40,688 bases of DNA from Pseudomonadota bacterium (lineage in GTDB: Bacteria; Pseudomonadota; Gammaproteobacteria; Steroidobacterales; Steroidobacteraceae). Location: positions 1 to 40,688 of the forward strand of contig CANGMU010000001.1 of the NCBI GenBank assembly GCA_947454665.1, in the 5' to 3' direction. The notes beneath the pieces are model-generated. The model did no database searches, was not told where the DNA came from, and was given only the letters and a program-made list of their open reading frames with translations. Both the position numbers and the translations under genes were made by a program. This document shows positions 4,730 to 39,748 of this stretch, piece by piece; position 1 is the first letter of the stretch; every line of letters starts with the position of its first letter.

Positions 4730-5266
4730 ATGACTTCACGCAAGCTTCCGCTCAGCCTGCTGCTCGCCACCGGCGCGCTGGCGCTCGGCTCGATGGCCCG
4801 GGCGGCCGACGCCCCGAAAATCACGCCGGAGACGCTGGTCGATCGCGCGATGATCGAGGAATTGCTGGTCGACTATTACAGCCAGCTCGGCGCCGGTAAG
4901 CACGACTTCAGCTACTGGTTCGCGGCAGACGGCATCCTCGACGTGAACGGCGAAATCGGTCAGGGCAAGGAAGGCATCGAGAAGATCTACCGCGACACCG
5001 CTGCGCGCGCGGTCGGCCGCAAGGGCACCTTCAAGATGCTGCTCACCAACATCAAGATCTCGGTCAATGGCAACACGGCCACCGCCGACATGATCTGGAC
5101 CGGCATCATTTCCGAGACGGTGACGTCAAAGCCCGTGCTGGATGAACAGGGCCACGAGCACGATGAGCTCGTGAAGCAGAACGGACGATGGGTCTTCAAG
5201 CATCGCTGGGTGACCAGCGATGGCGGCATGAACGCCGCCTTGCTGAAGACCTACAAGAAGCGCTGA
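4730..5266 (+). CDS. secreted NTF2/SnoaL-like fold protein
   Basis: ATG 4730 is preceded by GGGGGA. The signal peptide is MTSRKLPLSLLLATGALALGSMARA|AD. It has a single SnoaL_4-like layout (IEELLVDYY...W...DG...G...G..GI...Y...NGRWVFKHR). Confidence 0.8.
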   Translation: MTSRKLPLSLLLATGALALGSMARAADAPKITPETLVDRAMIEELLVDYYSQLGAGKHDFSYWFAADGILDVNGEIGQGKEGIEKIYRDTAARAVGRKGTFKMLLTNIKISVNGNTATADMIWTGIISETVTSKPVLDEQGHEHDELVKQNGRWVFKHRWVTSDGGMNAALLKTYKKR

Positions 5267-5320: not shown

Positions 5321-7426
5321 TCAGCCCCCGTGCAGGCCCTTCTGCGGAGCCGGCGGTGCGTTGGACGGCGTCGCACGGCCTGCGCCCGGACCCTGGAAGG
5401 TCTGCGCCGGCTGGTTCTTCACGTCGTTGGCCAGCTTCGTGACCCAGGCGCGGATCGACTCCGCGTCCTGCGGCTTCAGGACCTTCGCAAAGGACAGCAT
5501 GCCGTTCTCGGTCAGCACGCCGTCGAGCACGACCGCCTTGAACGCCGCATCACTCTGCAGCAGCGCCGAGTAACGCAGGTCGGGGAAGCCACCCATGCCG
5601 CGGCCACCTTCGTGGCACAGCGAGCAGTTCTGCTGCCAGAGCTGCTGGCCCTTCTCGAGCGTCGCCGCGTCGCCGAAGTTCGCCGGCGCGTTGACGACCA
5701 GCGGAGCCGGCGGCGGCACCGGCGGCAGCACGACGGTGCCACCCAGCTTGTAGACCAGCAGGCGGTTGCCGCCCGCAGCGCGAGGCTGGCCGGCGAGCGC
5801 CGCGACATATTGCGTGTTGCCGACCTGATAGGTGATCGAACCGGCCTGCACGCTGGCACCGGCATCGGCCGACCACAGCTTCTCGCCGTTGTCCGCACGG
5901 AAGGCCGTGAAGTTGCGCTGGCCCGTGCCGTGGAACACGAGGTTGCCAGCCGTGGTCATCGTGCCGGAGTTCGCCACGCCCTCCGTCGAACGCCAGACTT
6001 CCTTCTGCGCGACCGGATCCCAGGCAGAGAGCCACTGGCCCGGACCTTCGACCGGCGGCGGCCCCATCTCGGGACGCTTGGCGATGTTGATGCCCAGCAG
6101 CTGGTTGCCCATCTTGGCGCCCAGTTCCGACACGAAGCCGAAGGTCGCGTAACGCAAGCCCACGTAGAACAGGCCCGTGTTCGGGTTGTACGACTGCGGA
6201 TACCAGACGTGCGTCTGGAAGGGCGTGACGTACCAGCCCTGCTTCGTCTTGCCGTAGTTCGAATCCGGATTGAGGATCGGCGCCCAGTTCTTGTCCTTGT
6301 CGAAGCCGGTGAGCCAGTTGGCGAAGGGCACGGTCAGCTTCGCGCTGAGCACCTTGCCGGTCGCCGCCTCGATCACATAGAACACGCCGTTCTTCGGGAT
6401 CTGCATCACGACGTGCTTCTTTTCGCCGTCGATGACCAGATCAGTCGTGGTCAGCGGGGAGGTGTTGTCGAAGTCGAAGTTTTCGGCAGGCACCGTCTGG
6501 TAATGCCAGCGGTACTGACCGGTCTTCGCATCCACCGCGACGATCGAGGCGATGAACAGGTTGTCGCCGCCGCCCGGTGAGCGATCTTCCGCGGGCCACG
6601 GCGCGCCGTTGCCTGTACCGAAGATCACCAGGCCCGTCTTCTCGTCAAAGACGATGCCGTCCCAGGGCGAACCACCACCGCCGGTCTTCCACCAGTCGCC
6701 GCTCCAGGTCTTCGCGGCCATCGGCATCACGCTGTCGGATGCGGCATGGTCCGGACCCTTCGACGGGTCGCCCGGCACGACATAGAACTTCCACTTGAAT
6801 TTGCCGGTTTCGGCGTCGTAGGCCGAGATGTAGCCGCGCTGGAAGTATTCACCGCCGCCCTGGCCAATGAAGACCATGCCGTTGCCGACGCGCGGAGCGC
6901 CGGTGATCGACATGTCGTCCTTGATGTCGGTGGTGCGTGTTTCCCAGACCTTGCTGCCTTTCTTCGCGTCGATGGCGACGAGGCGGCCATCCAGCGTGCC
7001 GAGCAGCAGCTTGCCGTTGTAGAAGGTCACGCCACGGTTGGAGTTGTTGCAGCACAGGCGCGTGGCCGCGATCTCGCGCGGCACCTTCGGGTCGTACTTC
7101 CACAGCGCCTTGCCGGTGGCGGCGTCGTAGGCGTAGACCTTGCTCCAGGGCGTGGTCACATAAATGCGGCCGTCGACCACCACAGGCGTGGACTGCCACT
7201 GGCCCTTCTCGCTGAGATCGGCGTACCACGCAAGGCCCAGCTTGCCGACGTTGTCGGCCGAGATCTGCTTCAGCGGGCTGTAACGCTGTTCATTGGAATC
7301 ACCGCCATGCAGCGGCCATTCGGTGGCATTGGCCGGGCCCGCGGGCTTGGAAGCCGCCTCGAGCTGCGATCCGCCAAAAGAAAGCACGGCGAGGCCGCAC
7401 AACGATGCAATCAGTACACGACGCAT
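5321..7426 (-). CDS. PQQ-dependent quinohaemoprotein alcohol dehydrogenase (type II, C-terminal cytochrome c domain)
   Basis: ORF 5321..7771 was trimmed to ATG 7424-7426 (MRRVLIASLCGLAVLSF, Sec signal, GGGGGA SD). It has beta-propeller W-motifs, the vicinal Cys pair LCCNNSNRG typical of PQQ-ADHs, and a C-terminal CSLCHE haem-c motif. Confidence 0.9.
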   Translation of the reverse strand: MRRVLIASLCGLAVLSFGGSQLEAASKPAGPANATEWPLHGGDSNEQRYSPLKQISADNVGKLGLAWYADLSEKGQWQSTPVVVDGRIYVTTPWSKVYAYDAATGKALWKYDPKVPREIAATRLCCNNSNRGVTFYNGKLLLGTLDGRLVAIDAKKGSKVWETRTTDIKDDMSITGAPRVGNGMVFIGQGGGEYFQRGYISAYDAETGKFKWKFYVVPGDPSKGPDHAASDSVMPMAAKTWSGDWWKTGGGGSPWDGIVFDEKTGLVIFGTGNGAPWPAEDRSPGGGDNLFIASIVAVDAKTGQYRWHYQTVPAENFDFDNTSPLTTTDLVIDGEKKHVVMQIPKNGVFYVIEAATGKVLSAKLTVPFANWLTGFDKDKNWAPILNPDSNYGKTKQGWYVTPFQTHVWYPQSYNPNTGLFYVGLRYATFGFVSELGAKMGNQLLGINIAKRPEMGPPPVEGPGQWLSAWDPVAQKEVWRSTEGVANSGTMTTAGNLVFHGTGQRNFTAFRADNGEKLWSADAGASVQAGSITYQVGNTQYVAALAGQPRAAGGNRLLVYKLGGTVVLPPVPPPAPLVVNAPANFGDAATLEKGQQLWQQNCSLCHEGGRGMGGFPDLRYSALLQSDAAFKAVVLDGVLTENGMLSFAKVLKPQDAESIRAWVTKLANDVKNQPAQTFQGPGAGRATPSNAPPAPQKGLHGG

Positions 7427-7537
7427 GATTCCCCCTGCTCCAAGCCATTGCGGCCCGCCTATTGTGGCGTTTATGACCGCTGGTGGTGAAATTCGTTCGG
7501 ACTCCTTGATACCACAACGAACAGCCTCGCGCGTACG

Positions 7538-8101
7538 ATGCCGCGCATGCACATCACGCTGACCGACTTCGCCCGCGTGCGACTGTTTCCCCGTGAACCG
7601 CGGCCCAACACCATCCGCGACATCTCCAGCCAGGACTTCGAGCGGCACCTCAACACGCACGCGCCGCTGCACGACCTGGCGGGCTATGCCCCCTTCTGCC
7701 GGCTGCATGTGCACCGGAACTGGACGTCCACGCGCTGCCTGACCGTCCCCATCACCGAGGCGAACCGGCACCTGCTGCGCTCCGGCTACGAAGCGCGCCA
7801 GCGCAGCGAGCTGCCGGTGCTGGTGCGCTGGTTCGAAGGGGTGGAAGTCCCGGTGGCCGGATACTTGATCGCGATCCTGTACAGCCGCGAACAGCTCAAG
7901 GCCGAGGGCACGCCCATCGATGCCGACTGGGGCGTGGTGGGCTGCCTCTACACGAGCGAGCCGGCCGAGATCCCGATGGCGCCGATCACGATGATGCGCA
8001 ACGCCCTTGGCACCGCCGAAGGCGGCTCGGGCGTCCCCCTCGACGCCGCGGCCTATCGGCGCAGCGTCGAGTTCTGGAACGCGAACGCCAACTGGCGCTG
8101 A
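7538..8101 (+). CDS. conserved hypothetical cytoplasmic protein (possibly DUF3228-like)
   Basis: Only non-antisense-looking ORF in this interval, with balanced composition and no signal peptide. The family name comes from weak memory only. Start could also be ATG 7547. Confidence 0.65.
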   Translation: MPRMHITLTDFARVRLFPREPRPNTIRDISSQDFERHLNTHAPLHDLAGYAPFCRLHVHRNWTSTRCLTVPITEANRHLLRSGYEARQRSELPVLVRWFEGVEVPVAGYLIAILYSREQLKAEGTPIDADWGVVGCLYTSEPAEIPMAPITMMRNALGTAEGGSGVPLDAAAYRRSVEFWNANANWR

Positions 8102-8107
8102 GCCCGC

Positions 8108-9160
8108 CTACTTCCTGATCGCCCCGTCCACGCCTTCGGGCGAGCAGCGGAAGGGTTCGAGCTTGAGGTCGGAAGGACCGTACTCCAGCGACGAAGGATC
8201 GAAGTCGCGCGTGAAAAATTCCGGATCCTTCATCTGGAACTCGACCACGAGACGCTGGCGCGCGACATCCAGGTGTACGCGCTCGACGGTCGTCAGCCCG
8301 GCGGAATGCAGCAGGCCGCGCGTCGGCTGGCCCGGCATCTCGACATACTGGTTCAGCACGCCAGCTGCGTAGTTCGCAGTCTCGATCACGAGCGTGTCGC
8401 CCTCGAAGTGGCCGATCGAATGGCCCAGCGACGTGCGGGGACCGTTCTTGGGGTGCTCCTTCAGGTTCAGGAACACGTTGCGCTTCACGTCCATCCACTC
8501 ATGGCGCAGCACCACGCGATCCTGTTCGCGGGTGATCGACAGCGGCGTGCCGGGTGCGCCCCAGGCCCTGCGGATGAAAACCGGGTCGCAACGGAAGGCC
8601 GGATCGTCCTTGAAGGGGTTGTACTTCGCGACGGCGGCCTGACCCGCGGGGGTCAGCGAATTGATCATCGGCTGCGGACCGGCCGTGAGACGGCCCGGCA
8701 TCGGCGCCAGCAGCCACGTGCCGAAAATATCCTTGCGCACCGGCAGCGGCGCGGCGACGGGCGCGCGACCCGCAGTGCCCGTCGGGCCGTTCACGTTCAG
8801 GACACGGCCGTCCGCGAAATGAACATCCGTGAAGAAACAGCGATGCACGTCGTTGCGCGACTGGGAGCCTTCCACGCGCAGTACCGTGCCGGGCTTGAGC
8901 ATCGCGGGCGTGATGCCGTTGCGCGTGAGCTGGGTGAATCCGTGCGACTCGCAGATGTATTCCTGCGTCCTGCCGTTCTCGTCGACGGCTTCGATGTGCA
9001 GGTAACTGTGCGGGTTGCGTGCTTCGAATTGAGTGACCTTGCCGCTGATGCTGACCGGCTTCTGCCGGTCGAAGTGCGGCTCGAAACTGTGGTGTGCGCC
9101 AGCAACCGTCGCGAATGAAGTCGCGACGACCAGTGTGGCAATGCTGCGGATCGATGTCAT
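8108..9160 (-). CDS. exported two-domain protein: DUF6152-like His-His N-terminal domain fused to GHSIGxWEGxxLVV module (paralogue 3)
   Basis: Sec signal MTSIRSIATLVVATSFATVAGA|HHSF. The N-domain motifs NPHSY, CE and KPG are shared with 32107..33246. The C-terminal module has FRCDP...GHSIGHFEGDTLVIET...VERVHLD...KDPEFF...FRCSPE. Confidence 0.85.
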   Translation of the reverse strand: MTSIRSIATLVVATSFATVAGAHHSFEPHFDRQKPVSISGKVTQFEARNPHSYLHIEAVDENGRTQEYICESHGFTQLTRNGITPAMLKPGTVLRVEGSQSRNDVHRCFFTDVHFADGRVLNVNGPTGTAGRAPVAAPLPVRKDIFGTWLLAPMPGRLTAGPQPMINSLTPAGQAAVAKYNPFKDDPAFRCDPVFIRRAWGAPGTPLSITREQDRVVLRHEWMDVKRNVFLNLKEHPKNGPRTSLGHSIGHFEGDTLVIETANYAAGVLNQYVEMPGQPTRGLLHSAGLTTVERVHLDVARQRLVVEFQMKDPEFFTRDFDPSSLEYGPSDLKLEPFRCSPEGVDGAIRK

Positions 9161-9259: not shown

Positions 9260-11758
9260 TCAGAACTTGCGCTCGACCGACAGGGCGTAGGTGCGCGGCT
9301 TGCCCGGGACACCCGTGACACCGCCGAACGCCGTCGTCACGTCGCTGACCGACTGGAAGTAGTACTTGTCGAAGAGGTTCTGCACCTCCGCGGCAACCTT
9401 CCAGTTCTTGTCGCTGGCCCACGTCACATGCGCGTTCGCGAGGAAGCGGCCATCGACACGGCTCCAGGAGGTGTTCTCCGCAGTCGTGTACAGCTTGCCC
9501 TGGTAAGCACCATCCACGCGGTAGCTGATCTTGCCCGAGGCGATCTGCTGGTCGTACTGGGCGCCCACGGCGTAGGCCGTCTTCGGCGTGTACGGCGTGA
9601 TGGCGCTGCCCGGGATGCCCGTGTTGACCAGGTTGCCACCCGAAGTCGCCGTGGTGTAACCGAAGTCGAGGTAGCTGAAGCTGCCATCGAACGACAGGTT
9701 ATCCGTGGCGTACACGCGGGCTTCCAGCTCCGCACCCTTCACGTCGGCAGCGCCGATGTTCGAAGGACGCAGGCAGGGCGTCGGCAGGCTCGATTCCGGG
9801 CACTGGGCCTTGCCAAGGATGATGTCCTTGTACTTGTTCAGGAACACCGCACCGTTCAGGCGGACGCGACGCTCCATGAGGTCAGCCTTGAAGCCGGCTT
9901 CGTAGGTCGTCAGCGTTTCCGGGTTGAACGGCAGCTTCTGGTCGGCCACGAACGGACGCGGGTTCACGCCGCCGCCCTTGAAGCCCGTCGAAACCGAGGC
10001 GTAAGCCATGAAGTTTTCGTTGAAGCGGTAGTCACCGACCAGGCGCCAGTCCAGGCGATCGCCCGAGAAGCTGCCCGTGACGTTATAGATGCCCGCGAGG
10101 ATGCAGTTCGGGTACATCAGGACCGTCGGGCCAGGGCCGCCGAAGCACTGCGCCGGGCTCGGCACGCTGCTGTCCGGGTTCGAACGGTAGTAGGTGTAGT
10201 CCTTCTTGTCCTTCGTGTAGCGCAGGCCACCCGTGACGCTGAACGCATCGGACGGGTGCAGCGTCGCCGTGGCGAAGACCGCCTTCGTGTTGCTCGGCGT
10301 GGTGTCCGGGCCATGCAGGAAGTCGATGGTCGGGCTGACGTAGTTCAGGTCGACGCGGGCGGTGTAGGTGCCCTTCTGGTCGAGGTAGCACGCACCGACC
10401 GTACCCTCGGCGAAGCCGTTGCCGGACTTCAGGTTCAAGCGGACTTCAGACGTGAACGCGTGATGGTTCAGCTCGTTGTCCAGCTGGGACAGCGGCAGCG
10501 GGCTGGCGTCCTGGTCCTGACCGAACTTCGAGTTGTACGAGCGGTACGAACCGATGTACACGAACTCGGCGTTGTCGCTGATCTTGTAGTGCGCGTCGGC
10601 GTGGAAGCCCTGGCCGTAGAACTCGGTCGTCGGCAGGGAGAAGTACGGCTTGAACGGCGCCTGAGTCGTCGGGGCCATGCCGTCGAGGAAGTTCGAGTAG
10701 CTGACGAAGCCGGCATCCCAACCCATCAGGTTGCGGCCGGTGTCGCAGCTGTACTTGCCAGCCGGGACGAACTTGCAACCATAAGCGATCGGCGTGCCGT
10801 CCTTGCCCTTCAGCAAGGCAGCAGTGGCCAGCGGCGTGCCGGCCAGCGAGGAGCCCGTCGAGGCCGGGTTGAAGAGCGCCGGGTTGCCCACGGTCGCGCC
10901 CGCGGCGATCAGCACGGTCGGAATGGCTTCCGACTTCTCGCGCGTGTAGTCCGCCGAGAGGTTGATCTCGAGCTGGTCGCTCGGCGTGATGCGCAGGGCC
11001 ATGCGGCCGGCGGTGATGTTCTGGCCGCCCATCGTCTGGTAGTCGGAATTGGCACGACCGCGCGTGTTGGTCTGCGGCACGTTCGACGACGGATGCGTCT
11101 GGCCGTAGTCGAGCATCGCGACGTAGCCTTCGTTGCTGCGGCTCATGCCCGAAACGCGCAGGGCGACCGTGTCGCTCAGGCGGATGTCGGCCATGGCGCG
11201 CGCGGTGATCTCGTTCAGCGAGCCATAGGACAGGCGCACCGAACCCGAGTCATCGCCCTTCGGCTTGGCGCTGAACAGCTTGATGGCGCCGCCGATGGCG
11301 TTCTTGCCAGCCAGCGTGCCCTGCGGGCCGCGAAGGATTTCAACGCGGTCGAGGTCGATCAGCTCGAGCAGCGAGCTCGACAGGGTCGGGATGTACACGT
11401 CGTCGACGTACACGCCTACGCCCGGGTCGAGCGCGTAGTTGAAGTCCGTCTGGCCGACGCCACGGATGAAGGCGATCAGGCCCGAGCCGCCGTTCTGCGG
11501 CTGCGGACGCAGCGACACGTTCGGCGCCTGCGCGGCGACCTGGGCGATGTTGGTCTGGCCACGGGCTTCGAGCATCGCGGCGTTGACGGCCGTGATGGCG
11601 AGCGGCGTGTCCTGGAGGTTCTGCTCACGGAACTGCGCCGTGACGACGACTTCCTGCAAGGCGTCCTTGGATTCATCGGCAGCGATGGCGCTGGTCGAAG
11701 CGGCAAGCGCCGCGCTGACGGCAGCGATGATCTGCCAGGCCTGGGTCTTTTGCTTCAC
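9260..11758 (-). CDS. TonB-dependent receptor
   Basis: GTG start with GGGGGA SD. Signal peptide ...ALAASTSAIA|AD. The plug region is LQEVVVTAQFREQNLQDTPLAITAV. A long beta-barrel-type alternating sequence follows, with a terminal aromatic ...YALSVERKF. Confidence 0.92.
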   Translation of the reverse strand: MKQKTQAWQIIAAVSAALAASTSAIAADESKDALQEVVVTAQFREQNLQDTPLAITAVNAAMLEARGQTNIAQVAAQAPNVSLRPQPQNGGSGLIAFIRGVGQTDFNYALDPGVGVYVDDVYIPTLSSSLLELIDLDRVEILRGPQGTLAGKNAIGGAIKLFSAKPKGDDSGSVRLSYGSLNEITARAMADIRLSDTVALRVSGMSRSNEGYVAMLDYGQTHPSSNVPQTNTRGRANSDYQTMGGQNITAGRMALRITPSDQLEINLSADYTREKSEAIPTVLIAAGATVGNPALFNPASTGSSLAGTPLATAALLKGKDGTPIAYGCKFVPAGKYSCDTGRNLMGWDAGFVSYSNFLDGMAPTTQAPFKPYFSLPTTEFYGQGFHADAHYKISDNAEFVYIGSYRSYNSKFGQDQDASPLPLSQLDNELNHHAFTSEVRLNLKSGNGFAEGTVGACYLDQKGTYTARVDLNYVSPTIDFLHGPDTTPSNTKAVFATATLHPSDAFSVTGGLRYTKDKKDYTYYRSNPDSSVPSPAQCFGGPGPTVLMYPNCILAGIYNVTGSFSGDRLDWRLVGDYRFNENFMAYASVSTGFKGGGVNPRPFVADQKLPFNPETLTTYEAGFKADLMERRVRLNGAVFLNKYKDIILGKAQCPESSLPTPCLRPSNIGAADVKGAELEARVYATDNLSFDGSFSYLDFGYTTATSGGNLVNTGIPGSAITPYTPKTAYAVGAQYDQQIASGKISYRVDGAYQGKLYTTAENTSWSRVDGRFLANAHVTWASDKNWKVAAEVQNLFDKYYFQSVSDVTTAFGGVTGVPGKPRTYALSVERKF

Positions 11759-13428: not shown

Positions 13429-14526
13429 GTGCCATCCCTGACGCTTCTGAAGCAGCAAAAGCGGCTGCTGGTCCGGCGCCATGCACAGTCGAGTAACTGG
13501 ATCGGCCTCTGGCAGGTCACCACGACGCTGGTGCCGCTGGGCCTGCTGGGCTGGGCGGCCATCGCCAGCCAGTCCATCTCCCTGTGGCTTTCCGCAGCGT
13601 GCACGGTGGCCCTGAGCCTGCTGATGGTCCGCGTCTTTGCGCTGATGCACGAATGTGGCCACGGCAGCCTGTGCCGCACGCAGTGGCTGAACCGGCTCTG
13701 GGGTTTCGTGTTCGGCGTGCTGTCGGGCATGCCCCAGTACGTCTGGGCGCAACACCACGATTACCACCATCGCACCAATGGCAACTGGGATCGGTACCGG
13801 GGGCCGCTGTCCACGCTGTCGGTCGAAGAGTTCGACGCGATGAGCGAAAGCCAGCGTCGCAACTGGCTGCGCGCACGACGCCTGTCCCTGGCGCCGCTCG
13901 GCGGCTTCGTCTATTTGATCTTCAATCCCCGCTTCAACTGGATGAAGGGCCTGCTGGCCTGGCTGCGGTATGGACTGCGCGGTGGATGGCGCGACACGGT
14001 GCCCGCGTTCCAGACGCGCTACTGGCGCACACGCCGCGAGTTCTGGCACATGACCGCCAACAACGTCGTGCTGCTGTCGCTGTGGGCGCTGCTGACGGCA
14101 AAGCTGGGCGCCGCGGCGTTCTTTCCGGTGTACCTGATCAGCGTCTCGGTCGCCGGCGGCGTGGGCATCGCCCTGTTCACCGTGCAGCACAACTTCGATG
14201 CGGCCTATGCAGCCCGTGACGAAGACTGGGACCTGGACAGCGGTGCCTTGCACGGCACGAGCTTCCTGGTGCTGCCGGGCTGGCTCAACTGGATGACCGC
14301 CAACATCGGCTTCCACCACATCCACCACTTGTCGGCGGCGATACCGGGCTATCGCTTGCCGCAATGCCATGCGGAATACGCCGAGCTCTTCGCCTCGGTC
14401 CGGCGCATCACGCTGCGGGAAATTCCGGCGCAGCTGCGCTGCCTGCTCTGGGACAAGCAGACCCAGCAGATCATCTCGGCCGACGCCTACGTCCGCGCGC
14501 AAACTGAACACGGGGAACCCGCATGA
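13429..14526 (+). CDS. membrane fatty-acid-desaturase-family protein (three His boxes)
   Basis: His boxes HECGH, HHDYHH and HHIHH, separated by hydrophobic stretches. Start is uncertain: GTG 13429 (AAGGGG 9 nt upstream, gives MPSLTLLKQQ...) is preferred over GTG 13321. The stop overlaps the next start (ATGA). Confidence 0.8.
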   Translation: MPSLTLLKQQKRLLVRRHAQSSNWIGLWQVTTTLVPLGLLGWAAIASQSISLWLSAACTVALSLLMVRVFALMHECGHGSLCRTQWLNRLWGFVFGVLSGMPQYVWAQHHDYHHRTNGNWDRYRGPLSTLSVEEFDAMSESQRRNWLRARRLSLAPLGGFVYLIFNPRFNWMKGLLAWLRYGLRGGWRDTVPAFQTRYWRTRREFWHMTANNVVLLSLWALLTAKLGAAAFFPVYLISVSVAGGVGIALFTVQHNFDAAYAARDEDWDLDSGALHGTSFLVLPGWLNWMTANIGFHHIHHLSAAIPGYRLPQCHAEYAELFASVRRITLREIPAQLRCLLWDKQTQQIISADAYVRAQTEHGEPA

Positions 14527-16286
14527 AATCGACCTGGCTTGGAGCCGTAGGCCTTTACCTGCTCAGCTCGATCTGTGCAGCGCAGCTGCCACCCGGCGTC
14601 ACGCCGGAGATGATCGCCTCCTCGCTGCCTGAAGAAGGCGCGGTCAAGGCCGAGCCCGGCCGCTACGCCGTGACGTCTGAAGCGGCATTTGCCAGCGAAG
14701 GGCTCAAGGTGTTCCGCCCGGCCAGTCTCGACCGCTTTCCGCGGCAGGACACGCTGCCCGTGGTGGTCTGGGGCAATGGCGGCTGCGCGATCGACAACGC
14801 CCGCTACACCGGCTTCCTGGAGACCATCGCGTCGCAGGGCTTCCTGGTGGTGACTACCACGGCAGCACCCGCAGCGGTGACGCCGGGCGCGACCGCAGCG
14901 CGTCGTCAGGCCACAGCCGGCGACCTGGCGTCGGCGATCGACTGGGCCCTGCACGAAAACGAGCGAGCCGGATCGGCGCTGCTGGGCAAGGTCGACACGA
15001 AACACATCGCCGTGATGGGCCAATCCTGCGGCGGCCGTCTGTCGCTGGAACTGGGGACCGACCCACGCGTGGGCACCATCGGTGTATTCAACATGGGACT
15101 GCAGCCCGGCCAGTTCAATCAGCTCGCGAAATTGCATGGCCCTGTGCTGCTGATCAACGGCCACGAGCGCGACTTCATGTTCGGCCAGTCGAAGGCCACC
15201 TTCGATGCACTCGAAACGTTGCCCGTGTTCTACGGTTCCCGGCACGGCGCGGGCCATACGGGCACGTCCTACCACGCGGGTGGTGGCGAGTTCGCCAACG
15301 TGGCAGCGAACTGGGTGCGCTGGCAGTTCAAGCAGGATCGCAAGGCCTCGCAGATGTTCGTGGGTGACCACTGCGGGCTGTGCACGAACAAAAACTGGGA
15401 CGTGGCCGCCAAACGGCTGGCTTTCGCCTCGGCGGCCACGGCAGTGGCCCTGCCCCTGCCCCCCTGCGATCGCGAGTGCCTGCGCGGCGCGCTGGGCCAG
15501 GTGCTCTATGCCTTCGTCGATCACGACGTCAGCAAACTGCCCGTCGCGGCAAACCTGCGCGTCACCGAAGACGGTGTCGAGAAGGCGCTCGACAAGGTGG
15601 GCCTCGTCCGCAGCGTGACGCGGCTGCGCGGTTACCGGCAGGATGTCATCGACGAACGGACGGGGCAGGTCCTGGCAGGCGTGCTGGTGGAAGAATCCGG
15701 CGCGCCGGTGATCCTCGTCGTGCGGGTGAAGGTCGAGGGCGACAGGCTGCGCGAGCTGGAACTGATCAGTACGCGCAGCCGTACTGACGGGATGATCTTC
15801 GCGATCGATCATTTCACCGTGGCCCGCAAGGCCATGAGCGTCGTGCCCCGCCCTGCGCAGCTCGCGACGCGCGCGGAGGCGCTGGAGATCGCCCTGCATT
15901 ACCCGCGCGGGCTGAACTCGGCGAAGACCTTCAATGCCGTGGACACGCCATTCGCGCCGGAGGCGCGACGCATCGAGAACGGCGCCCTGATGGCGGGCCC
16001 GGGCTGCACCTTCAACAAGGGCTGCGAGGACATCGGGAACCAGCCGCTCACGATCTTCGAACGGCTCGGCAAGGTGACGCTGCGCGATGCCGTGGTCGAC
16101 GAACGGACCGGTATCGTCGCGCTGCGGCTGTCCTGGAACCAGAGCGGCCCGGGCTCGGACAAGCTGACGGCCTGGGAGTTGTTCAAGGTCTGGGACCGCC
16201 AGATCCACGCGGTCGAAGCCTATATCCGCCTGTTCAAGCCGGAACAGGAGCTTGGCGGCTGGCCGCTGCGCGTCGCGCAGCCCTGA
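14523..16286 (+). CDS. secreted alpha/beta hydrolase (GQSCG nucleophile elbow) fused to a ~275-aa C-terminal extension
   Basis: Sec signal MKSTWLGAVGLYLLSSICAA|Q. Hydrolase features are VMGQSCGGRLSL (Ser ~15024..15026), INGHERD and GAGHTG. The hydrolase core ends near KRLAF (~aa 300), and the remainder (~15465..16283) has NTF2-like sequence character. Confidence 0.85.
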   Translation: MKSTWLGAVGLYLLSSICAAQLPPGVTPEMIASSLPEEGAVKAEPGRYAVTSEAAFASEGLKVFRPASLDRFPRQDTLPVVVWGNGGCAIDNARYTGFLETIASQGFLVVTTTAAPAAVTPGATAARRQATAGDLASAIDWALHENERAGSALLGKVDTKHIAVMGQSCGGRLSLELGTDPRVGTIGVFNMGLQPGQFNQLAKLHGPVLLINGHERDFMFGQSKATFDALETLPVFYGSRHGAGHTGTSYHAGGGEFANVAANWVRWQFKQDRKASQMFVGDHCGLCTNKNWDVAAKRLAFASAATAVALPLPPCDRECLRGALGQVLYAFVDHDVSKLPVAANLRVTEDGVEKALDKVGLVRSVTRLRGYRQDVIDERTGQVLAGVLVEESGAPVILVVRVKVEGDRLRELELISTRSRTDGMIFAIDHFTVARKAMSVVPRPAQLATRAEALEIALHYPRGLNSAKTFNAVDTPFAPEARRIENGALMAGPGCTFNKGCEDIGNQPLTIFERLGKVTLRDAVVDERTGIVALRLSWNQSGPGSDKLTAWELFKVWDRQIHAVEAYIRLFKPEQELGGWPLRVAQP

Positions 16287-16348
16287 CGCCAGCGCGACGG
16301 CAGCTAGCGGTTCGTGCCGTGCATCGACAAGGAAACAAAGGGGGCTCC

Positions 16349-17080
16349 ATGCAACGGATACATTTCGCCATCGTCGTCGCGGCCGGGCTGGTGTTTTCAG
16401 CGCCGCCTTCCGGCTCTGCCGAATCGCACCCGGACCTGACCGGCGTCTGGACCAGCGCGGACGGCGCGGGACGTCGCGACGCAACGGGAACCACGATTCC
16501 CCTCAAGCCCGACGCAAAGCGACGTCACGACACGTTCAACAAGCTCGTGGAGCCTTCCGGCGACACGCCGGGGGGCGTGTGCCTGGGGGCCGGCATGCCG
16601 GGTGCCATGCTCGGTGCCGGGGGCTATCCCATGGAGATCATCCAGCGGCCTGAACAAATCACGCTCATCTACGAATTGCACGGCGAAACGCGACGCGTGT
16701 ATTTCGGCGACCGCAATGCGCCCGAGGCCGACCGCGTGCCGGGCCGCAGCGGCTATTCCAGCGGTCACTGGGATGGCGATGTACTCGTCGTGGAGACGAA
16801 CAACCTGGTCGAGCAGTTGGACCAGCGCACCACCCCGCATTCGGAGGATGCCGTGATCGTCGAGCGATACCGCCTGGATGGCGTCGACGAACAAGGGCGC
16901 CGCATCCTTTCAGCCGAGCTGACGATGACCGATCCGACGTTCTACAGCGCACCGGTCACACTCACGCGAAAGTGGGCGCAGGTGCCCAACGGCCGTCTGC
17001 TGCCCTATGAATGCAACGAGGAATTCTGGCGGGAACGGCTCCAGTCACTCGCCCGGAAAGCTGGCATGAAACTCCCCTGA
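16349..17080 (+). CDS. exported protein, GHSIGxWEGxxLVV-module family (paralogue 2)
   Basis: ATG 16349 is preceded by AAGGGGG. Sec signal MQRIHFAIVVAAGLVFSAPPSGSA|E. Module motifs are VCLGAGMPGAM...MEIIQRP...RRVYFGD...SSGHWDGDVLVVET...VERYRLD...MTDPTFY...YECNEE. Confidence 0.85.
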   Translation: MQRIHFAIVVAAGLVFSAPPSGSAESHPDLTGVWTSADGAGRRDATGTTIPLKPDAKRRHDTFNKLVEPSGDTPGGVCLGAGMPGAMLGAGGYPMEIIQRPEQITLIYELHGETRRVYFGDRNAPEADRVPGRSGYSSGHWDGDVLVVETNNLVEQLDQRTTPHSEDAVIVERYRLDGVDEQGRRILSAELTMTDPTFYSAPVTLTRKWAQVPNGRLLPYECNEEFWRERLQSLARKAGMKLP

Positions 17081-17134: not shown

Positions 17135-17989
17135 TCAGCCTGACTCGGCTTCCTCGCGGCGTCGCTGCCGCTCCTCGGCTTCGAGTCGCTCGTCTTCGAT
17201 GACCTCGAGAACCGCGGCCACGTCCGCCACATGCTCGTCGCGTTCGAAACGCCCCGTCAGGGGTGACTCCGGCTGCAGCACGCCCTCTTCGTAAAGCGCC
17301 CAGATCTCATGGGCGTACTCCGTTTCCAGCAGTTCCGGCGCCGCCCGTCCGCAGTATTCGCGCATGTTGTTCACGTCACGCTCGAGCATGCGGAAGGCGT
17401 TGTTGTTGCCAGCAGCGTTCACCGCCTGCGGCAGGTCGATGATGACCGGGCCGGTCGCATCGAGCAGCACGTTGAATTCGGACAGGTCGCCGTGGATGAG
17501 GCCTTCGCAGAGCATGAGGACGATCTGGCGCACGAGAAAGGCATGCCACTGGCGGGCCTGCTCGGGTTCGGGCATCACATCATTCAGGCGCGGGGCGGGA
17601 TTGCCCTCGGCATCGCGCACCACCTCCATCAACAGCACGCCATCGAATACGCCGTAGGGCTTTGGCACGCGCACGCCGGCCGCGGCAAGACGGTAGAGGG
17701 CCTCAACTTCCGCACTCTTCCACTCGGCTTCCTGAACGCTGCGGCCGTGCCGACCGCCCTTGCCCAAGGCCCGTGCATCGCGACTGCCGCGCACCTTGCG
17801 ACCTTCCTGGTATTCGGCGAGCTTGTGGAAGCCGCGATGGTTGGCGTCCTTGTAGACCTTGGCGCAGAGGATTTCATCGCCGCGGGCCACGAGAAAGACC
17901 GAAGCCTCCTTGCCACTCTTGAGCCGACGGATGACGGTATCGACGATGCCGTCTTCGATGAGCGGCTGCAGTTCGCGAGGGGACTTCAT
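17135..17989 (-). CDS. RIO1-like serine protein kinase (bacterial PA4780-type)
   Basis: Motifs SGKEASVF (P-loop-like), CAKVYK, LIHGDLSEFNVL (catalytic loop) and IIDLPQAV (metal-binding), followed by an acidic C-terminal tail. Confidence 0.85.
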   Translation of the reverse strand: MKSPRELQPLIEDGIVDTVIRRLKSGKEASVFLVARGDEILCAKVYKDANHRGFHKLAEYQEGRKVRGSRDARALGKGGRHGRSVQEAEWKSAEVEALYRLAAAGVRVPKPYGVFDGVLLMEVVRDAEGNPAPRLNDVMPEPEQARQWHAFLVRQIVLMLCEGLIHGDLSEFNVLLDATGPVIIDLPQAVNAAGNNNAFRMLERDVNNMREYCGRAAPELLETEYAHEIWALYEEGVLQPESPLTGRFERDEHVADVAAVLEVIEDERLEAEERQRRREEAESG

Positions 17990-19864: not shown

Positions 19865-19958
19865 GGCCGCGGTCTATCGGAGAGGACGCGGGATGGGGAT
19901 TCGTTGCAAGATCGGACACCGGCGCCGGGGGTGGTCGCCGAAGAAAAAAAGGAAAGCC

Positions 19959-20855
19959 ATGTCACGCGCTGTCTGCTTCCGACTTTTGGCTCTGCTTGCC
20001 GTCGCACTATCCAGCGGCCCTGCGCACGCGGAGAGCTGGCAAGGTACCGGCGACATGCCGCTCGACTACCGGGCCTATGTCAGGGATTTCAATACCGGGG
20101 ATGACCGCGGCCTGGTGGAGAAATACTTCGCGCCCGACACGCAGATGATCAGCGGCAGTGGCGTGCGCAAGGGCCACAAGGGGATGAACGAGTTCCTGGC
20201 CTGGGCCCATGACGGCGTCCGGGAGATCATCCGCCCGCAGGTGGTGATGTGGGACAAGGACCACATCTTCGCGGAAGTGGACATGGACTTCGTCGCGTCG
20301 AAGCCGCGGCCTGATTTCACGTTCGGGGCGCTCAAGACGGGCGACATCCTCACCGTGAAGTTCTTCGCCGCATACACGGTGGTCAACGGCAAGATCACGA
20401 CCCTGAAGACGATGACCTGGAAGGCGGAAACCGGCGTGACCAAGGCACCCCGGCTCGGCAGCGAGGCGGGCCAGCGCGCGTCCTTTCTTGCGTACACGCG
20501 GGCCTTTTCCAGCGGCTTGCCGGAACAGTATTCCGCTTTCTACACGGACGACGTGAAGCTGCAGCTCAGCTCCGTCGGCACCCTCACCGGCAAGAAGGCC
20601 ATCGTCGATTTCTATACGAAGATGTTCCGCACGGTGCGCGAGGATCTGGTCGTCAACCAGATCGTCTTCGACGAGAAGGCCATCGTCGGCGACTTCGTCA
20701 GCGTCTTCACGGCCGTTGAGGATGCGCCGGACTTCGTCGTCGCCCCGCTCAAGAAGGGCGAATCGATCCGCGTGCCGGTGTTCGTGTACTACACCCTGCG
20801 CGACGGCCTGATTTCCGACATCAGGGTCGCCAGGTCCGGCGCCCCCGCTCGCTGA
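19959..20855 (+). CDS. secreted tandem SnoaL/NTF2-like domain protein
   Basis: ATG 19959 is preceded by AAAGGAAAG. Sec signal MSRAVCFRLLALLAVALSSGPAHA|E. Two ~130-aa SnoaL-like repeats are present (YRAYVRDFNTGD...VVNGKITTLK and FLAYTRAFSSG...LRDGLISDIRV). Confidence 0.8.
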   Translation: MSRAVCFRLLALLAVALSSGPAHAESWQGTGDMPLDYRAYVRDFNTGDDRGLVEKYFAPDTQMISGSGVRKGHKGMNEFLAWAHDGVREIIRPQVVMWDKDHIFAEVDMDFVASKPRPDFTFGALKTGDILTVKFFAAYTVVNGKITTLKTMTWKAETGVTKAPRLGSEAGQRASFLAYTRAFSSGLPEQYSAFYTDDVKLQLSSVGTLTGKKAIVDFYTKMFRTVREDLVVNQIVFDEKAIVGDFVSVFTAVEDAPDFVVAPLKKGESIRVPVFVYYTLRDGLISDIRVARSGAPAR

Positions 20856-25327: not shown

Positions 25328-26296
25328 TTACTTGTCGTCGACCGCCGCCACGTTGCGGTATTTGATCAGCCACTGGCCATCGACTTTGACGAGGTCATCG
25401 ACGCCATTGCCGGCGGCGGCGATGCGCGCGGGATCCGGCGAGGTGGCACCACCGGTCCCGAACACCGTCTGGTGGTAATAGTGATAGCGGGCCGTCGTGG
25501 GCCCCGTGAACTCCAGGTACTGGTTCATCGTGAAGTGGCGCATGGTGATCTTCTCACCCTTCGCACGACGCTCGTCCTGCCCCTTGGCCAGGTCGACGAT
25601 CATCTTGTGCAGCGCTTCCCGGCCCTTGGTCTGGCCGAAGGCACCATCCACCGTGAACAGCTTCGCGTAGGCGTCCGCGTTGGAGGTGTCGAGCATGCGG
25701 TCGTAGGTCCACATCAGCTTCTCGATCGCCGCGCGGTCTTCCGGCGTGCCGACGCGGGCAGCAGCGGGTGCAGCTGGAGCAGGCGCCGGCAGCGTGGCCG
25801 GGTCCCAGTGCTCGTCGGCCTTGCCGTTCACGAAGCGCCAGGTGTCGAACCACGTCGTCGTGTAGGACTTGGACGGATCGTCGGCGTACTTGTATTCGCG
25901 GACGGCCAGCACGGTGACGAAATCACCCTCGGCCTGCACCGCGACCACCGGGCTCGTCAGCTTCGTGCAGGTCGGCGTCGGCTTGCGCTTGGCGACGTTG
26001 ATGAAATATTCCTGCACGCCCTTGAGGCCGGAGGCGGCCATCGGGTTGTGCTGGATGTACTTGTCCGACAGCCACTCGCCGGCGCGCTCCCACTGATTGC
26101 ACTGGAGCAGCTCGCGCATGATGTGCAAGGCTGCCTGCTTGTTGCGGTGGAGCGCCTTGTCCTTGCTGTTGAACAGCGATTCCGGGTCGGGATGCGCCAC
26201 GACCGGATCGGACAGCGCGCGCATCTGCGCCGCGGCAGGCAGTGTCATCAGGACGCCGACTGCGGCGATGAAAGCCAGGCGAATTGAACGTGTCAT
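25328..26296 (-). CDS. secreted tandem NTF2/SnoaL-like domain protein
   Basis: ORF 25328..26440 was trimmed to ATG 26294-26296 (GGGGGG SD). Sec signal MTRSIRLAFIAAVGVLMTLPAAA|Q. Two NTF2-like halves are joined by a PAPAPAAPAAA linker. Confidence 0.8.
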   Translation of the reverse strand: MTRSIRLAFIAAVGVLMTLPAAAQMRALSDPVVAHPDPESLFNSKDKALHRNKQAALHIMRELLQCNQWERAGEWLSDKYIQHNPMAASGLKGVQEYFINVAKRKPTPTCTKLTSPVVAVQAEGDFVTVLAVREYKYADDPSKSYTTTWFDTWRFVNGKADEHWDPATLPAPAPAAPAAARVGTPEDRAAIEKLMWTYDRMLDTSNADAYAKLFTVDGAFGQTKGREALHKMIVDLAKGQDERRAKGEKITMRHFTMNQYLEFTGPTTARYHYYHQTVFGTGGATSPDPARIAAAGNGVDDLVKVDGQWLIKYRNVAAVDDK

Positions 26297-26396
26297 CGGA
26301 AAACCCCCCGTTGATCTTGTAGATTCGACCCCTCGAGCATCCACTACCCGCCGGCGATTCTCAAATCGTCGAGGGTTCCACGCTGAGGGTTCAACC

Positions 26397-27272
26397 ATGC
26401 GCCTGCCTGTCCTGGCCCTGCTGGCCTTGCTGTCTTCCACGGCCGCACTCGCGCAGTCGACCGACCTGCCGAAAGCCGTCTACACGGATCCGCCTCGCGA
26501 TGCGGCGCATCCCGCCCGGATGGAAGTGCTCCACATCCCGAGCGGCACGGTCCGGATCAACGGCGTGGCCTACCTCGCAGCGGGCGCGGGAACGCACCCC
26601 ACGCTGGTCATCTGCCATGGCCTGCCCGGCAACGAGAAGAACCTCGATCTCGCCCAGGCCGTGCGCCGCGCGGGCTGGAACGCGATCACCTTCAACTACC
26701 GCGGCTCCTGGGGCAGCCCGGGCCGCTACCGCTTCAGCCAGAACCCGGAGGACGCCAGGGCCGTCCTCGCCTTCCTGCGGGAGCCGGCCAATGCGGCGCG
26801 CCTGGGGATCGACACGCAGCAGCTGGCGATCGTGGGCCACAGCATGGGCGGCTGGGTGGCCGCCCAGGTTGGCGGACAGGACGGGACGCTGCGCGGCGTG
26901 GGCCTGATTTCGGCCGCGAACGTCGGGAACATGGGCAGCCAGAAGCGCGCAGACGTGGTCAAGCGCATGGCGGGCAACCGCGAGGCCCTGGCCGGCGTGA
27001 CGGCCGAAAGCATGGCGGACGAGCTCATCGCGCATCAGCGGGACTTCGACTTCCTGCAGCAGGCCAAAGGCCTGTCCGGCAAGTCCGTCCTGATCCTCAG
27101 TTCCGACGACGGCCTGGCACCCGGTACCGATGCGCTGGCGGCGGCGATCCGCGCCTCGGGTGGCACATCCGTGCTGACGCAGCACGTGGCCACGGACCAC
27201 AGCTGGTCCGACAACCGGATCACCCTGCAGGCCCAGCTCATCCGGTGGCTGCAGTCCTTGCAGCCCGGCTAA
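26397..27272 (+). CDS. secreted alpha/beta hydrolase (GHSMGG)
   Basis: ORF 26097..27272 was trimmed to ATG 26397 (GAGG SD). Sec signal MRLPVLALLALLSSTAALA|Q. Nucleophile elbow is IVGHSMGGW, with late Asp/His candidates (SSDDG, TDHSW). Confidence 0.85.
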   Translation: MRLPVLALLALLSSTAALAQSTDLPKAVYTDPPRDAAHPARMEVLHIPSGTVRINGVAYLAAGAGTHPTLVICHGLPGNEKNLDLAQAVRRAGWNAITFNYRGSWGSPGRYRFSQNPEDARAVLAFLREPANAARLGIDTQQLAIVGHSMGGWVAAQVGGQDGTLRGVGLISAANVGNMGSQKRADVVKRMAGNREALAGVTAESMADELIAHQRDFDFLQQAKGLSGKSVLILSSDDGLAPGTDALAAAIRASGGTSVLTQHVATDHSWSDNRITLQAQLIRWLQSLQPG

Positions 27273-30572: not shown

Positions 30573-32042
30573 CTACCGGGGTTCGAAGGGCAACTCCACG
30601 CGGGGCACCCACCAGCCGTGCACCTGCATGTGCAAACGGAAGGGCAGCTTGATGCGGGCCACGGCACCGGCAGCCAGGTCCATCGCGTCCACGACGACCA
30701 GTTCCGAGCGCAGCGCGCGGAAGTCGTTCACGACACCGATCAGGTAACCGTCTCCCTCGGGGGCATCCGGTGAGCGCGGCACGAACTGCATTTCCGAGAC
30801 GCCGTGGCTGTCGCCGGGCGAGAAGGTGTCGATCTGGCCCGTGACGTGATCGAAGCGGCACCAGACGTTGGAGACGCGCACCGCGAGGGTGTCGGCAAAC
30901 TCGCGATTCACCGGCTGGTTGGGATCGCTCATCATCATGAAGCTGTAGCGATTCTTCCGACCGACGTAGCGATCGTCGATGCGCGTGAAGCTGGTGACCT
31001 TCATGCCCCCGAAGAGGAGCTCTTCCTGCCAGGTATCGCTGGCCGAGTCGAGATCGAAGGTCCAGCGCCGCATCGTCGGGATGTAGCGCGAGGGATCATT
31101 CGGCTGGCCATCCACGCGCGGGAAATAGGAGTGGAAGTTCTCTGCGGCCACCGGCGCCTCGAGGATCACCTTGTTCCCCTCGCTCCAGGCATTGGTCGTG
31201 TGGACCAACATCGCCTGGTCGGGCGTACCGTGGAACCAGCGCACGTCCTTGGCCGTTCCATTGCGCGGCACGATGGCCACATGCGCAGGCACGGCCGGGT
31301 CATAGGCCCAGTGCAGCTTGCCCTGCTTAAGACGTTCGGGCGAAGTCACCATGCCGGTGGTGGGCAGGATGACATGCCGATCCGTGATGGCCATGTCGTG
31401 CATGGCATTGACCACCGGCGCCTTGAACCAGATCTCGTTCGTGACCGAGCCACCCTTGTCGATCACATACACGGCGAGGTCGTCGCTGCAATCGCCCTTG
31501 GCCTCGTAGGAAAAGGCAACCAGCTCACCGGTACGCGGATCGAGCTTCGGGTGGGCCGTGAACGTCGTGGCCGTCATCCTGCCACCGAAATTCCATTCTC
31601 CGATCGTGTCCAGCGTGTCCGGGTCCAGGCGCACCGGCAGGCCTTCCTCCTTCATGCTGAACAACATGCCGGCATGCACGATCGGCGTCGTGTTGGCGGT
31701 GCTGTGGCTCAGCTCCCGCACGCTGGGATCCGACGTCGACCGGTTGCGGTATCGGCCGAACAGGGCGCGGTGCGCGGCGCGTTCGGCGACGTAGCGGTCC
31801 GTCTTCACATAGCGGGAGCGGTAATCCACGTGGCCGTCGTAGAAACGGAACTGGTCGACCGCGCCATCGGCGTTGTACGGCGTGTCGTCGGCATACATCG
31901 CGGCGAAGCGCCGATCCGCACAGCTGCGAAAGAACGTGCCCTGCAGCGCGGCAGGCAGCGTGCCTTCGACCTCGCAATCCAGCACTTCGGCTTCGAAACG
32001 CATCGGCGCGAAGAAATCGCTGCCGCGGGTTGAGCTGCTCAT
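30573..32042 (-). CDS. carotenoid-oxygenase-family dioxygenase (lignostilbene-alpha,beta-dioxygenase-like)
   Basis: RPE65/CCD layout with four spaced His candidates (TAHPKLDP, AMHDMAITDRH, LVHTTNAW, QVHGWWV). The N-terminus DGAVDQFRFYDGHVDYRSRYVKTDRY is colinear with LSDs as recalled. Start is ATG 32040-32042 (GGGGGA SD); the in-frame ATG at 32084 is the alternative. Confidence 0.87.
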   Translation of the reverse strand: MSSSTRGSDFFAPMRFEAEVLDCEVEGTLPAALQGTFFRSCADRRFAAMYADDTPYNADGAVDQFRFYDGHVDYRSRYVKTDRYVAERAAHRALFGRYRNRSTSDPSVRELSHSTANTTPIVHAGMLFSMKEEGLPVRLDPDTLDTIGEWNFGGRMTATTFTAHPKLDPRTGELVAFSYEAKGDCSDDLAVYVIDKGGSVTNEIWFKAPVVNAMHDMAITDRHVILPTTGMVTSPERLKQGKLHWAYDPAVPAHVAIVPRNGTAKDVRWFHGTPDQAMLVHTTNAWSEGNKVILEAPVAAENFHSYFPRVDGQPNDPSRYIPTMRRWTFDLDSASDTWQEELLFGGMKVTSFTRIDDRYVGRKNRYSFMMMSDPNQPVNREFADTLAVRVSNVWCRFDHVTGQIDTFSPGDSHGVSEMQFVPRSPDAPEGDGYLIGVVNDFRALRSELVVVDAMDLAAGAVARIKLPFRLHMQVHGWWVPRVELPFEPR

Positions 32043-32048
32043 CGTGTG

Positions 32049-32081
32049 TCCCCCAGGGTCCGGGGACCGGACCATGGGGGA
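32049..32081 (-). promoter_or_regulatory. strong hairpin whose 3' arm contains the SD of the dioxygenase gene
   Basis: The minus-strand RNA reads UCCCCCA-U-GGUCCGG-ucc-CCGGACC-C-UGGGGGA: 14 base pairs with one U/C mismatch. UGGGGGA is the only SD-like element and sits 6 nt before AUG 32042. Confidence 0.45.
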
Positions 32082-32106
32082 CATTCTACGGAATCGCCGC
32101 AGCCAG

Positions 32107-35891: not shown

Positions 35892-35895
35892 GGCC

Positions 35896-37173: not shown

Positions 37174-37196
37174 GGTCTTCGGTGCCTCCAGAGAAG

Positions 37197-39683: not shown

Positions 39684-39742
39684 CCCGATCCCCCGTTGGC
39701 CGCAGACAAGGTCTGCGAGCCGTCCACCCTCTTTAACCCCCA

Positions 39743-39748
39743 AGTATA
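39743..39748 (-). promoter_or_regulatory. candidate -10 box (TATACT) for the DUF1592 operon
   Basis: The minus strand reads ctCTTATACTtggg, 59 nt upstream of ATG 39683. No convincing -35 element. Confidence 0.3.

Follow-up and report, generated by a model that had tools for sequence, protein, structure and literature searches.

The DNA analysed here is a stretch of 40,688 nucleotides from a Steroidobacteraceae bacterium (GenBank assembly GCA_947454665.1, contig CANGMU010000001.1, positions 1 to 40,688), which we call the window. Four of its genes carry one module of about 200 residues (M). The focal gene, copy B, encodes a single module behind a signal peptide. M belongs to a large exported family that so far has no name and no studied member. 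It is predicted to be calycin-like, of the FABP/CRABP type, at the level of the fold only, and its dominant conserved partner is a second domain, DUF6152 (U). Our tentative reading is that M is a calycin-like barrel, exported and stabilised by a disulfide, that would bind small, poorly soluble ligands, serve as an accessory to periplasmic catabolism or uptake, and often form a two-part unit with DUF6152. We regard this as quite possible and stop short of calling it probable. Residue numbers follow copy B throughout.

Four copies of one module

The module is found in two genes that encode nothing else after the export signal, and in the C-terminal halves of two fusion genes. Matches to a hidden Markov model (HMM) of the module are given for each.

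Copy A: 1670..2410, plus strand, 246-residue lipoprotein with lipobox LGG/C26; module match 1736..2365
Copy B (focal gene): 16349..17080, plus strand, 243-residue exported protein with a single module; module match 16391..17035
Copy C: 8108..9160, minus strand, 350-residue fusion of a signal peptide, DUF6152 (8804..9097) and the module (8129..8755)
Copy D: 32107..33246, minus strand, 379-residue fusion of a signal peptide, DUF6152 (32884..33171) and the module (32137..32835), with a long linker between the two domains

The first-pass annotation, made from the sequence alone, had claimed that these four genes share a module, and this holds. All four reading frames are at the coordinates listed. 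The strongest pair is C and D, which align over their full length (BLASTP E 8e-36), and the weakest is A and C (E 5e-10). Between these fall A-B (E 2e-22, 34% identity over 153 residues), A-D (E 6e-17), B-D (E 4e-15) and B-C (E 6e-13). Judged by these alignments, the similarity is far beyond chance. The module HMM finds no fifth copy in a six-frame translation of the window, where the next match has E = 0.4. The proposed order of motifs is also seen in the alignment: G-x-W, C, RR(I/V)(H/Y), GHS-G-W-E-G-D-LVV-T, ER, DP and C. Two of its details fail, since the C-x-P motif is C-L-G in copy B and copy C has KRNVF in place of RR(I/V)(H/Y). Export was claimed as well and is borne out by the lipobox of A, the Sec-type signal of B and the signal peptides of C and D.

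The same annotation took the four copies for an expansion within the lineage. This does not make sense of the identities. The copies are only 28-36% identical to each other, whereas B and D each have their own orthologues of about 80% identity in other genomes (up to 83% for B and up to 84% for D). On these values the copies are old paralogues and there has been no recent local expansion.

The signal peptide of copy B covers approximately residues 1-24, and its orthologues are likewise 243 residues long. The ATG at 16349 has a Shine-Dalgarno-like AAGGGGG about 5 nucleotides upstream. Promoter and terminator scans around the gene found nothing. The codon of its invariant Cys78 is 16580..16582 and that of Cys222 is 17012..17014.

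A large family without a name

No named family could be assigned in the first-pass annotation, and our searches agree. At a cut-off as loose as E <= 1, neither Pfam-A nor NCBIfam matches A, B or the module part of C and D. When 110 diverse members were scanned against Pfam at that same cut-off they hit 21 unrelated families, one member each, which is noise. Neither a 4-sequence nor a 110-sequence profile finds a relative of the module among PDB sequences. Every source label present among the listed homologues of copy B reads "hypothetical protein", and whole proteins that fuse U to M are labelled "DUF6152 family protein". In the literature library searched, no paper mentions DUF6152 or DUF6644 (a membrane protein described below), and none is on these families.

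The family is large. A profile search of 1.84 billion cluster representatives (clusters at 50% identity) returned 14,099 proteins at E <= 1e-3 and 7,667 at E <= 1e-10. A single peptide pattern has at least 600 matches in GTDB species genomes, distributed across Steroidobacteraceae, Caulobacterales, Sphingomonadales, Rhodospirillaceae and several orders of Acidobacteriota. Among homologues with a named source, copy B has relatives in Steroidobacteraceae, Nevskiaceae or Pseudomonadota, and all those of the C/D fusions belong to Steroidobacteraceae. Among the top 150 representatives the module stands alone in 118, is doubled (M-M) in 23 and is fused behind DUF6152 (U-M) in 9. A signal-like N-terminus is present in 107 of the 135 representatives that start with Met, and 10 of these 107 have a lipobox.

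Some loci hold many copies. One Acidobacteriota locus of 20.7 kb (L045) has about 13 module copies and 5 DUF6152 domains within 20 kb. Another (L071) has about 9 copies interleaved with genes of the metallo-beta-lactamase (MBL) fold, and a third (L058) has 5 modules in tandem.

Invariant residues

Conservation was counted over an alignment of 178 diverse domains. The first-pass annotation saw a Cys near each end of the module in all four copies, and this extends to the whole family: C78 is present in all 168 aligned domains and C222 in 152 of 153. Across the domains of the window and the loci fetched from genomes, 151 of 174 have both Cys, most of the remainder are truncated, and 159 of 174 have no further Cys. 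When an exported domain has exactly two Cys, this usually points to a structural disulfide. We argue that the pair most likely forms one that ties the segment after the helices to the C-terminal segment.

The G-x-W of strand A is nearly as constant (G32 and W34, 141/143 each), as are R115 (167/174) and G135 (174/175). Also near-invariant are G139, W141, G143, L146 and P196, along with a set of charged and polar residues, E109, R115, S137, T150, E172, R173 and D195, which hold over more than 170 diverse domains.

A three-His site at positions 124, 136 and 164 was considered and rejected as a family-wide feature. These His are semi-conserved and every combination of them occurs, so there is no family-wide triad. 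The window copies themselves read HHL (A), AYH (B), HHH (C) and HHS (D), which leaves B with one of the three. Such a variable set would fit a tunable pocket better than a fixed metal site or a catalytic triad.

Predicted fold

Copy B was modelled with AlphaFold2 from a 35-sequence alignment, giving a predicted local distance difference test score (pLDDT) of 78.8 and a predicted template modelling (TM) score of 0.74. In this model strand A (32-36) has the G-V-W, two helices follow (54-70 and 74-77), the other eight strands fall within 95-212, and the C-terminal helix spans 224-238. The 50 matches that Foldseek lists against the PDB are all calycins (CRABP2, FABPs, CRBP1, shwanavidin). Their probability is mostly 0.99-1.0, and the best TM scores normalised by the target are 0.50-0.61. 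We call the module calycin-like in fold and a member of neither the FABP nor the CRABP family because a sequence-profile link is absent.

The best structural matches of the model are the intracellular lipid-binding proteins (iLBPs: FABP, CRABP, CRBP). Like the model of M they have a strand A with G-x-W, two helices and an antiparallel up-and-down barrel, and the shared role one would expect is to hold a hydrophobic ligand inside the barrel. The differences are considerable. The iLBPs have no detectable sequence relationship to M. They are about 135 residues long without a signal peptide, while M is about 200 residues, exported, and has an extra C-terminal helix, a long N-terminal segment and the invariant Cys pair. 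They have ten strands with a helix-turn-helix between A and B, and M has nine predicted strands. The iLBPs are cytosolic and mainly metazoan.

It is worth considering the bacterial lipocalins too. Blc of E. coli and YxeF of B. subtilis are small beta-barrels that are exported or anchored by a lipid. They share with M the G-x-W of strand A and with its model a helix at the C-terminus, and both are lipoproteins, as is copy A. YxeF adopts the calycin fold (PMC3367933). The G-x-W of the first structurally conserved region (SCR1) of kernel lipocalins is present in M. Kernel lipocalins further have a T-D-Y (SCR2) and after it an Arg (SCR3), on a barrel of eight strands that a helix follows. M has an invariant T-D-P (D195, P196) and the invariant Arg R115 and R173, but these Arg precede the TDP. 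However, the Pfam lipocalin and FABP models match none of the four copies or the 110 members. M has a helix pair after strand A, its motifs GHSxGxWEGDTLVVDT, VER and TDP differ from the lipocalin set, and a DUF6152 partner is unknown for lipocalins.

VtrA/VtrC and ToxR/ToxS offer a precedent: in each, a calycin-like barrel in the periplasm works only with a second, separately encoded periplasmic domain, and its ligand is a hydrophobic small molecule (PMC4933562, PMC10624426). Those are membrane-anchored bile-salt signalling proteins in which the partner completes the barrel. M carries no regulator domain, and its partner is a soluble domain with an OB fold. We know of no sequence similarity between them and M.

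The DUF6152 partner

In both C and D the N-terminal half is Pfam DUF6152 (PF19649), a domain the first-pass annotation overlooked. The matches are clear for both C (69.1 bits, E 3.5e-19) and D (62.5 bits, E 4.1e-17) against a gathering cut-off of 27. The Pfam model spans only the OB-fold domain of about 98 residues, and the module lies outside of it. Copies A and B contain no DUF6152 and have none adjacent.

Partners were counted in 79 loci fetched from genomes, which hold 150 module copies. DUF6152 is fused to the module or within 600 nucleotides of it on the same strand in 74 of the 150. It precedes the module in 37 of these, follows it in 34 and is fused in 3. DUF6152 is present in 52 of the 79 loci. 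The association is also seen from the other side: two stand-alone DUF6152 genes, chosen independently, each have a module gene directly downstream. Among the conserved partners of the module, DUF6152 dominates.

The model of DUF6152 is an OB barrel (pLDDT 86.5), and its Foldseek matches include the LysRS N-domain, SSB and PriB. A 55-sequence profile of the domain found nothing meaningful among PDB sequences. The invariants across those 55 diverse sequences are H1, H2, F4, N26-P27-H28, Y30 and a Cys pair. The His-His and H28 are present in 55/55, and the His-His are the first two residues after an A-x-A signal-peptidase site, also in C and D. These invariants may be taken to resemble a metal site of the histidine-brace type.

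One can imagine a scenario where the pair handles metal. U would bind a metal such as copper through its processed N-terminal His-His and the invariant NPH His, and M would be a metallochaperone or delivery partner that serves periplasmic metalloenzymes. In that case the two Cys of M might coordinate the metal and not form a disulfide. The constancy of the DUF6152 residues and the cleavage site directly before the His-His argue for this. So does DUF6644, the commonest neighbour other than M or U (8/134), which has sub-threshold similarity to CopD and occurs in DUF6644-M-U operons. Many of the partner enzymes are also metal-dependent: the MBL, pyrroloquinoline quinone (PQQ)-dependent dehydrogenase, FGE-type, LigB and RPE65 families use a metal cofactor. 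The comparison with CopC/CopD concerns the partner and not M: U has a processed N-terminus that begins with an invariant His, and a second invariant His, and the CopD-like DUF6644 is sometimes encoded alongside. The putative metal site of U would be on an OB fold rather than the beta-sandwich of CopC and LPMO, and CopCD systems have nothing that corresponds to M. To our knowledge the OB fold is not the fold of any histidine-brace protein. DUF6644 resembles CopD only at a score too low for Pfam. Nor does M keep its three His together, B having just one of them. Moreover, A and B have no adjacent U, and the two Cys per domain look like a disulfide. Finally, the esterases and S15 hydrolases that partner B orthologues need no metal. 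We consider metal handling unlikely.

Neighbouring genes across genomes

The immediate neighbours other than M or U of 117 clusters (134 scanned) span 167 Pfam families. The commonest among the 134 are DUF6644 (8), TonB-dependent receptors (6), MFS (5), SDR (4), PQQ-dehydrogenases (3) and MBL proteins (3). In a control of 140 genes at least five genes away, DUF6644 and the receptors are both outside the top 25 families. DUF6644 is a membrane protein of about 160 residues with about four hydrophobic segments, a conserved His and a GRW motif; its weak, sub-threshold similarity is to DUF2214 as well as to CopD. There is none in the window. The genes found elsewhere are:

L012:9449-9940, DUF6644
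L013:9416-9907, DUF6644
L022:2300-2791, DUF6644
L031:3262-3750, DUF6644
L036:7073-7576, DUF6644
L056:1471-1947, DUF6644

The first-pass annotation suggested a test of co-occurrence with TonB-dependent receptors, and a narrower version of its idea is that M is their dedicated periplasmic partner and takes over the imported substrate. In a search with a receptor HMM these genes are 10 of 209 immediate neighbours of M/U clusters (4.8%) and 10 of 721 genes at least three positions away (1.4%), an odds ratio of 3.6 (p = 0.006). Copy C is 99 nucleotides downstream of a receptor gene, and a receptor gene followed by an M-U-U-M cluster is found in L054 and L080. Candidate cultured carriers of such a cluster are Alteraurantiacibacter buctensis M0322 (L080) and Altererythrobacter sp. 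CC-YST694 (L050). The association is real but weak. Receptors make up about 5% of immediate neighbours, none adjoins A, B, D or most loci elsewhere, and the contexts of B and D orthologues are without one except in L001, where it is about 2 kb downstream of the B orthologue. A receptor as the defining partner was rejected since it adjoins fewer than 10% of the clusters, enriched or not, and we find a role dedicated to receptors very unlikely.

Enzyme genes are the other kind of neighbour. B orthologues are the second gene of a pair, placed between a 4-nucleotide overlap and 62 nucleotides behind an enzyme gene that varies. The pairs are:

Window 14523..17080
L001:7096-8750
L088:3452-6726
L092:4115-5744
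L094:4094-5741

The upstream partner is a PETase-like esterase at one locus; others are a Peptidase_S15/PepX_C hydrolase, which overlaps by 4 nucleotides, and an FGE-sulfatase domain protein. The signal peptide of the partner was read for the alpha/beta-hydrolase of the window only. One B orthologue has DUF6152 and then LigB downstream instead. Arranged in this way, B orthologues may be expressed in stoichiometric amounts with enzymes that belong to unrelated classes. Pairs in which M comes after a PQQ-dehydrogenase gene (L062, L092) or after an MBL gene are found repeatedly, in Acidobacteriota and across distant phyla. Both mirror the window, where a PQQ-dehydrogenase is near C and an MBL gene is upstream of D.

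The D-type fusions behave differently. They are about 79-84% identical across many Steroidobacteraceae assemblies (L085, L096-L100), and their neighbours are unrelated: a GH10 xylanase, DUF8021, a glyoxalase and an OmpA-like protein. Synteny with RPE65 or MBL genes was sought around the D orthologues and is not conserved. This hints that the fusions have a function of their own, not tied to one pathway.

M itself could be an enzyme. Its calycin-like barrel would then catalyse, with a metal or without any cofactor, a reaction on intermediates made by the neighbouring periplasmic enzymes. Catalysts with this kind of barrel exist, such as allene oxide cyclase and the lipocalin-type isomerases. 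The near-invariant charged and polar residues, the constancy of the D type in variable neighbourhoods, and the tight and sometimes translational coupling of M genes to enzyme genes all speak for it. However, M is similar to no enzyme family in Pfam, NCBIfam or the PDB sequences, and the listed fold matches are ligand binders. Upstream partners of unrelated classes are hard to square with a single chemical step. Tandem expansions such as the one in L045 are more typical of binders whose specificities have diversified. We think a catalytic M quite unlikely.

A possible ligand-binding barrel in the periplasm

The ligand-binding barrel that we tentatively prefer would work as follows. M would fold as an up-and-down calycin-type barrel with a topology nearest to the iLBPs plus the extra C-terminal helix, and the Cys pair would close it from the post-helix segment to the C-terminal segment. 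Once in the periplasm, the barrel would bind a ligand that is small and poorly soluble, and would hand substrates or products between uptake at the outer membrane, periplasmic catabolic enzymes and transporters of the inner membrane. In about half of the cases M and U would act as a two-part unit, either from adjacent genes or as a U-M fusion. The first-pass annotation had proposed a substrate binder or carrier, and that stands as far as it is compatible with the predicted FABP-like barrel.

It must be noted that several points weigh against this scenario. Agreement with the calycin structures is modest (Foldseek E about 1e-3, rmsd 6-7 Å, query-normalised TM 0.31-0.36). Model confidence is low at both Cys, with pLDDT under 50 at 74-76 and an average of 61 over 221-230. 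There is no profile similarity to the iLBPs: with the 110-sequence module profile, hhalign puts the probability at 3.0% for human FABP4 and at 2.5% for human CRABP2. The near-invariant charged and polar residues are more than one would expect of a simple, promiscuous binder, and they could belong to a site of catalysis or of partner binding. Lastly, D orthologues with unrelated neighbours fit a self-contained activity at least as well.

A bolder scenario would join the two domains in one reaction. U and M would form a two-part periplasmic system in which a histidine-brace-like copper site on the OB fold (N-terminal His-His, NPH and Tyr/Phe) serves a substrate held by the barrel. U would act on a hydrophobic or aromatic substrate in M, or bring metal or oxidant to it. 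We believe this to be a long shot, less credible than any of the scenarios above. If true, it would be a new secreted oxidative or metal-dependent accessory for the breakdown of lignocellulose and aromatics in soil Proteobacteria and Acidobacteriota.

To return to the ligand-binding barrel, the family is abundant in soil Steroidobacteraceae, Caulobacterales, Sphingomonadales and Acidobacteriota, often with many copies per genome. The pairing with DUF6152, the U-M and M-M fusions and the placement behind varied enzymes suggest an unrecognised accessory layer in periplasmic catabolism, which would concern poorly soluble plant-derived compounds. The enzymes encoded before M genes include esterases, PQQ-dehydrogenases and MBL-fold proteins, and at least some of the enzymes are exported. 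What is new here is a very large, undescribed, exported calycin-like family with a characteristic OB-fold partner, whose mechanism we infer. A family definition would improve the annotation of thousands of "hypothetical" genes. There are two targets that can be tested, the barrel of M and the OB-fold domain with its His-His N-terminus.

Gene neighbourhood of the window

Copy A has an MFS gene divergent upstream and a GST gene after it, followed by LigB, LigA and a SnoaL protein. The genes around the other copies are as follows.

~4730..5266, plus strand, SnoaL-like protein
5321..7771, minus strand, PQQ-dependent dehydrogenase that includes a cytochrome c domain, on the strand of C and downstream of it
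7538..8101, plus strand, DUF3228 gene (E 4e-58), on the strand opposite to C and to the PQQ-dehydrogenase gene and between the two
9260..11758, minus strand, TonB-dependent receptor (Plug and beta-barrel), directly upstream of C at 99 nucleotides
14523..16286, plus strand, alpha/beta-hydrolase of 587 residues with a signal peptide and a weak PETase-like Pfam match, 62 nucleotides upstream of B
17135..17989, minus strand, bacterial RIO-type kinase gene (RIO1, E 3e-38), convergent with B
19893..20855, plus strand, SnoaL-like protein
25328..26440, minus strand, SnoaL-like protein
29296..~30612, MFS transporter gene, after the RPE65-family gene
30573..32084, minus strand, gene of the RPE65 or carotenoid- or stilbene-cleaving oxygenase family, 22 nucleotides downstream of D
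33284..34312, minus strand, MBL-fold protein with a Tat-type signal (MTVSRRSFLRD...), 37 nucleotides upstream of D
34323..39743, minus strand, three genes upstream of the MBL gene and D

An aldehyde dehydrogenase gene follows the receptor, and a gene of the FA_desaturase family and the hydrolase lead into B. Beyond B are a tannase, exported SnoaL proteins and other hydrolases. LigAB, GST, the tannase, the RPE65-family oxygenase, MFS and the TonB-dependent receptor mark the window as a region for the catabolism of aromatic or hydrophobic compounds, and many of its enzymes are periplasmic.

Two of the three SnoaL-like proteins have a signal peptide and one has two SnoaL domains. They may be periplasmic enzymes of the SnoaL fold that belong to the same catabolic region.

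Copy D sits in a string of minus-strand genes: DUF1592-type, DUF1552, an exported ankyrin protein, the Tat-signal MBL protein, D, the RPE65-family oxygenase and MFS. The three genes at 34323..39743 encode an exported ankyrin-repeat protein (522 residues, signal peptide), a DUF1552 (HXXSHH) protein and an 848-residue protein with DUF1592/1588/1585/1595/1587 and PSCyt domains. The DUF1552- and DUF1592-type families were first described in Planctomycetes; the host here is gammaproteobacterium-like.

The first 14-15 kb or so of the window are syntenic with contigs of GCA_947507725.1 and of two ENA metagenome assemblies. The placement of the DUF3228 gene between C and the PQQ-dehydrogenase gene is kept in the syntenic contigs (L082-L084).

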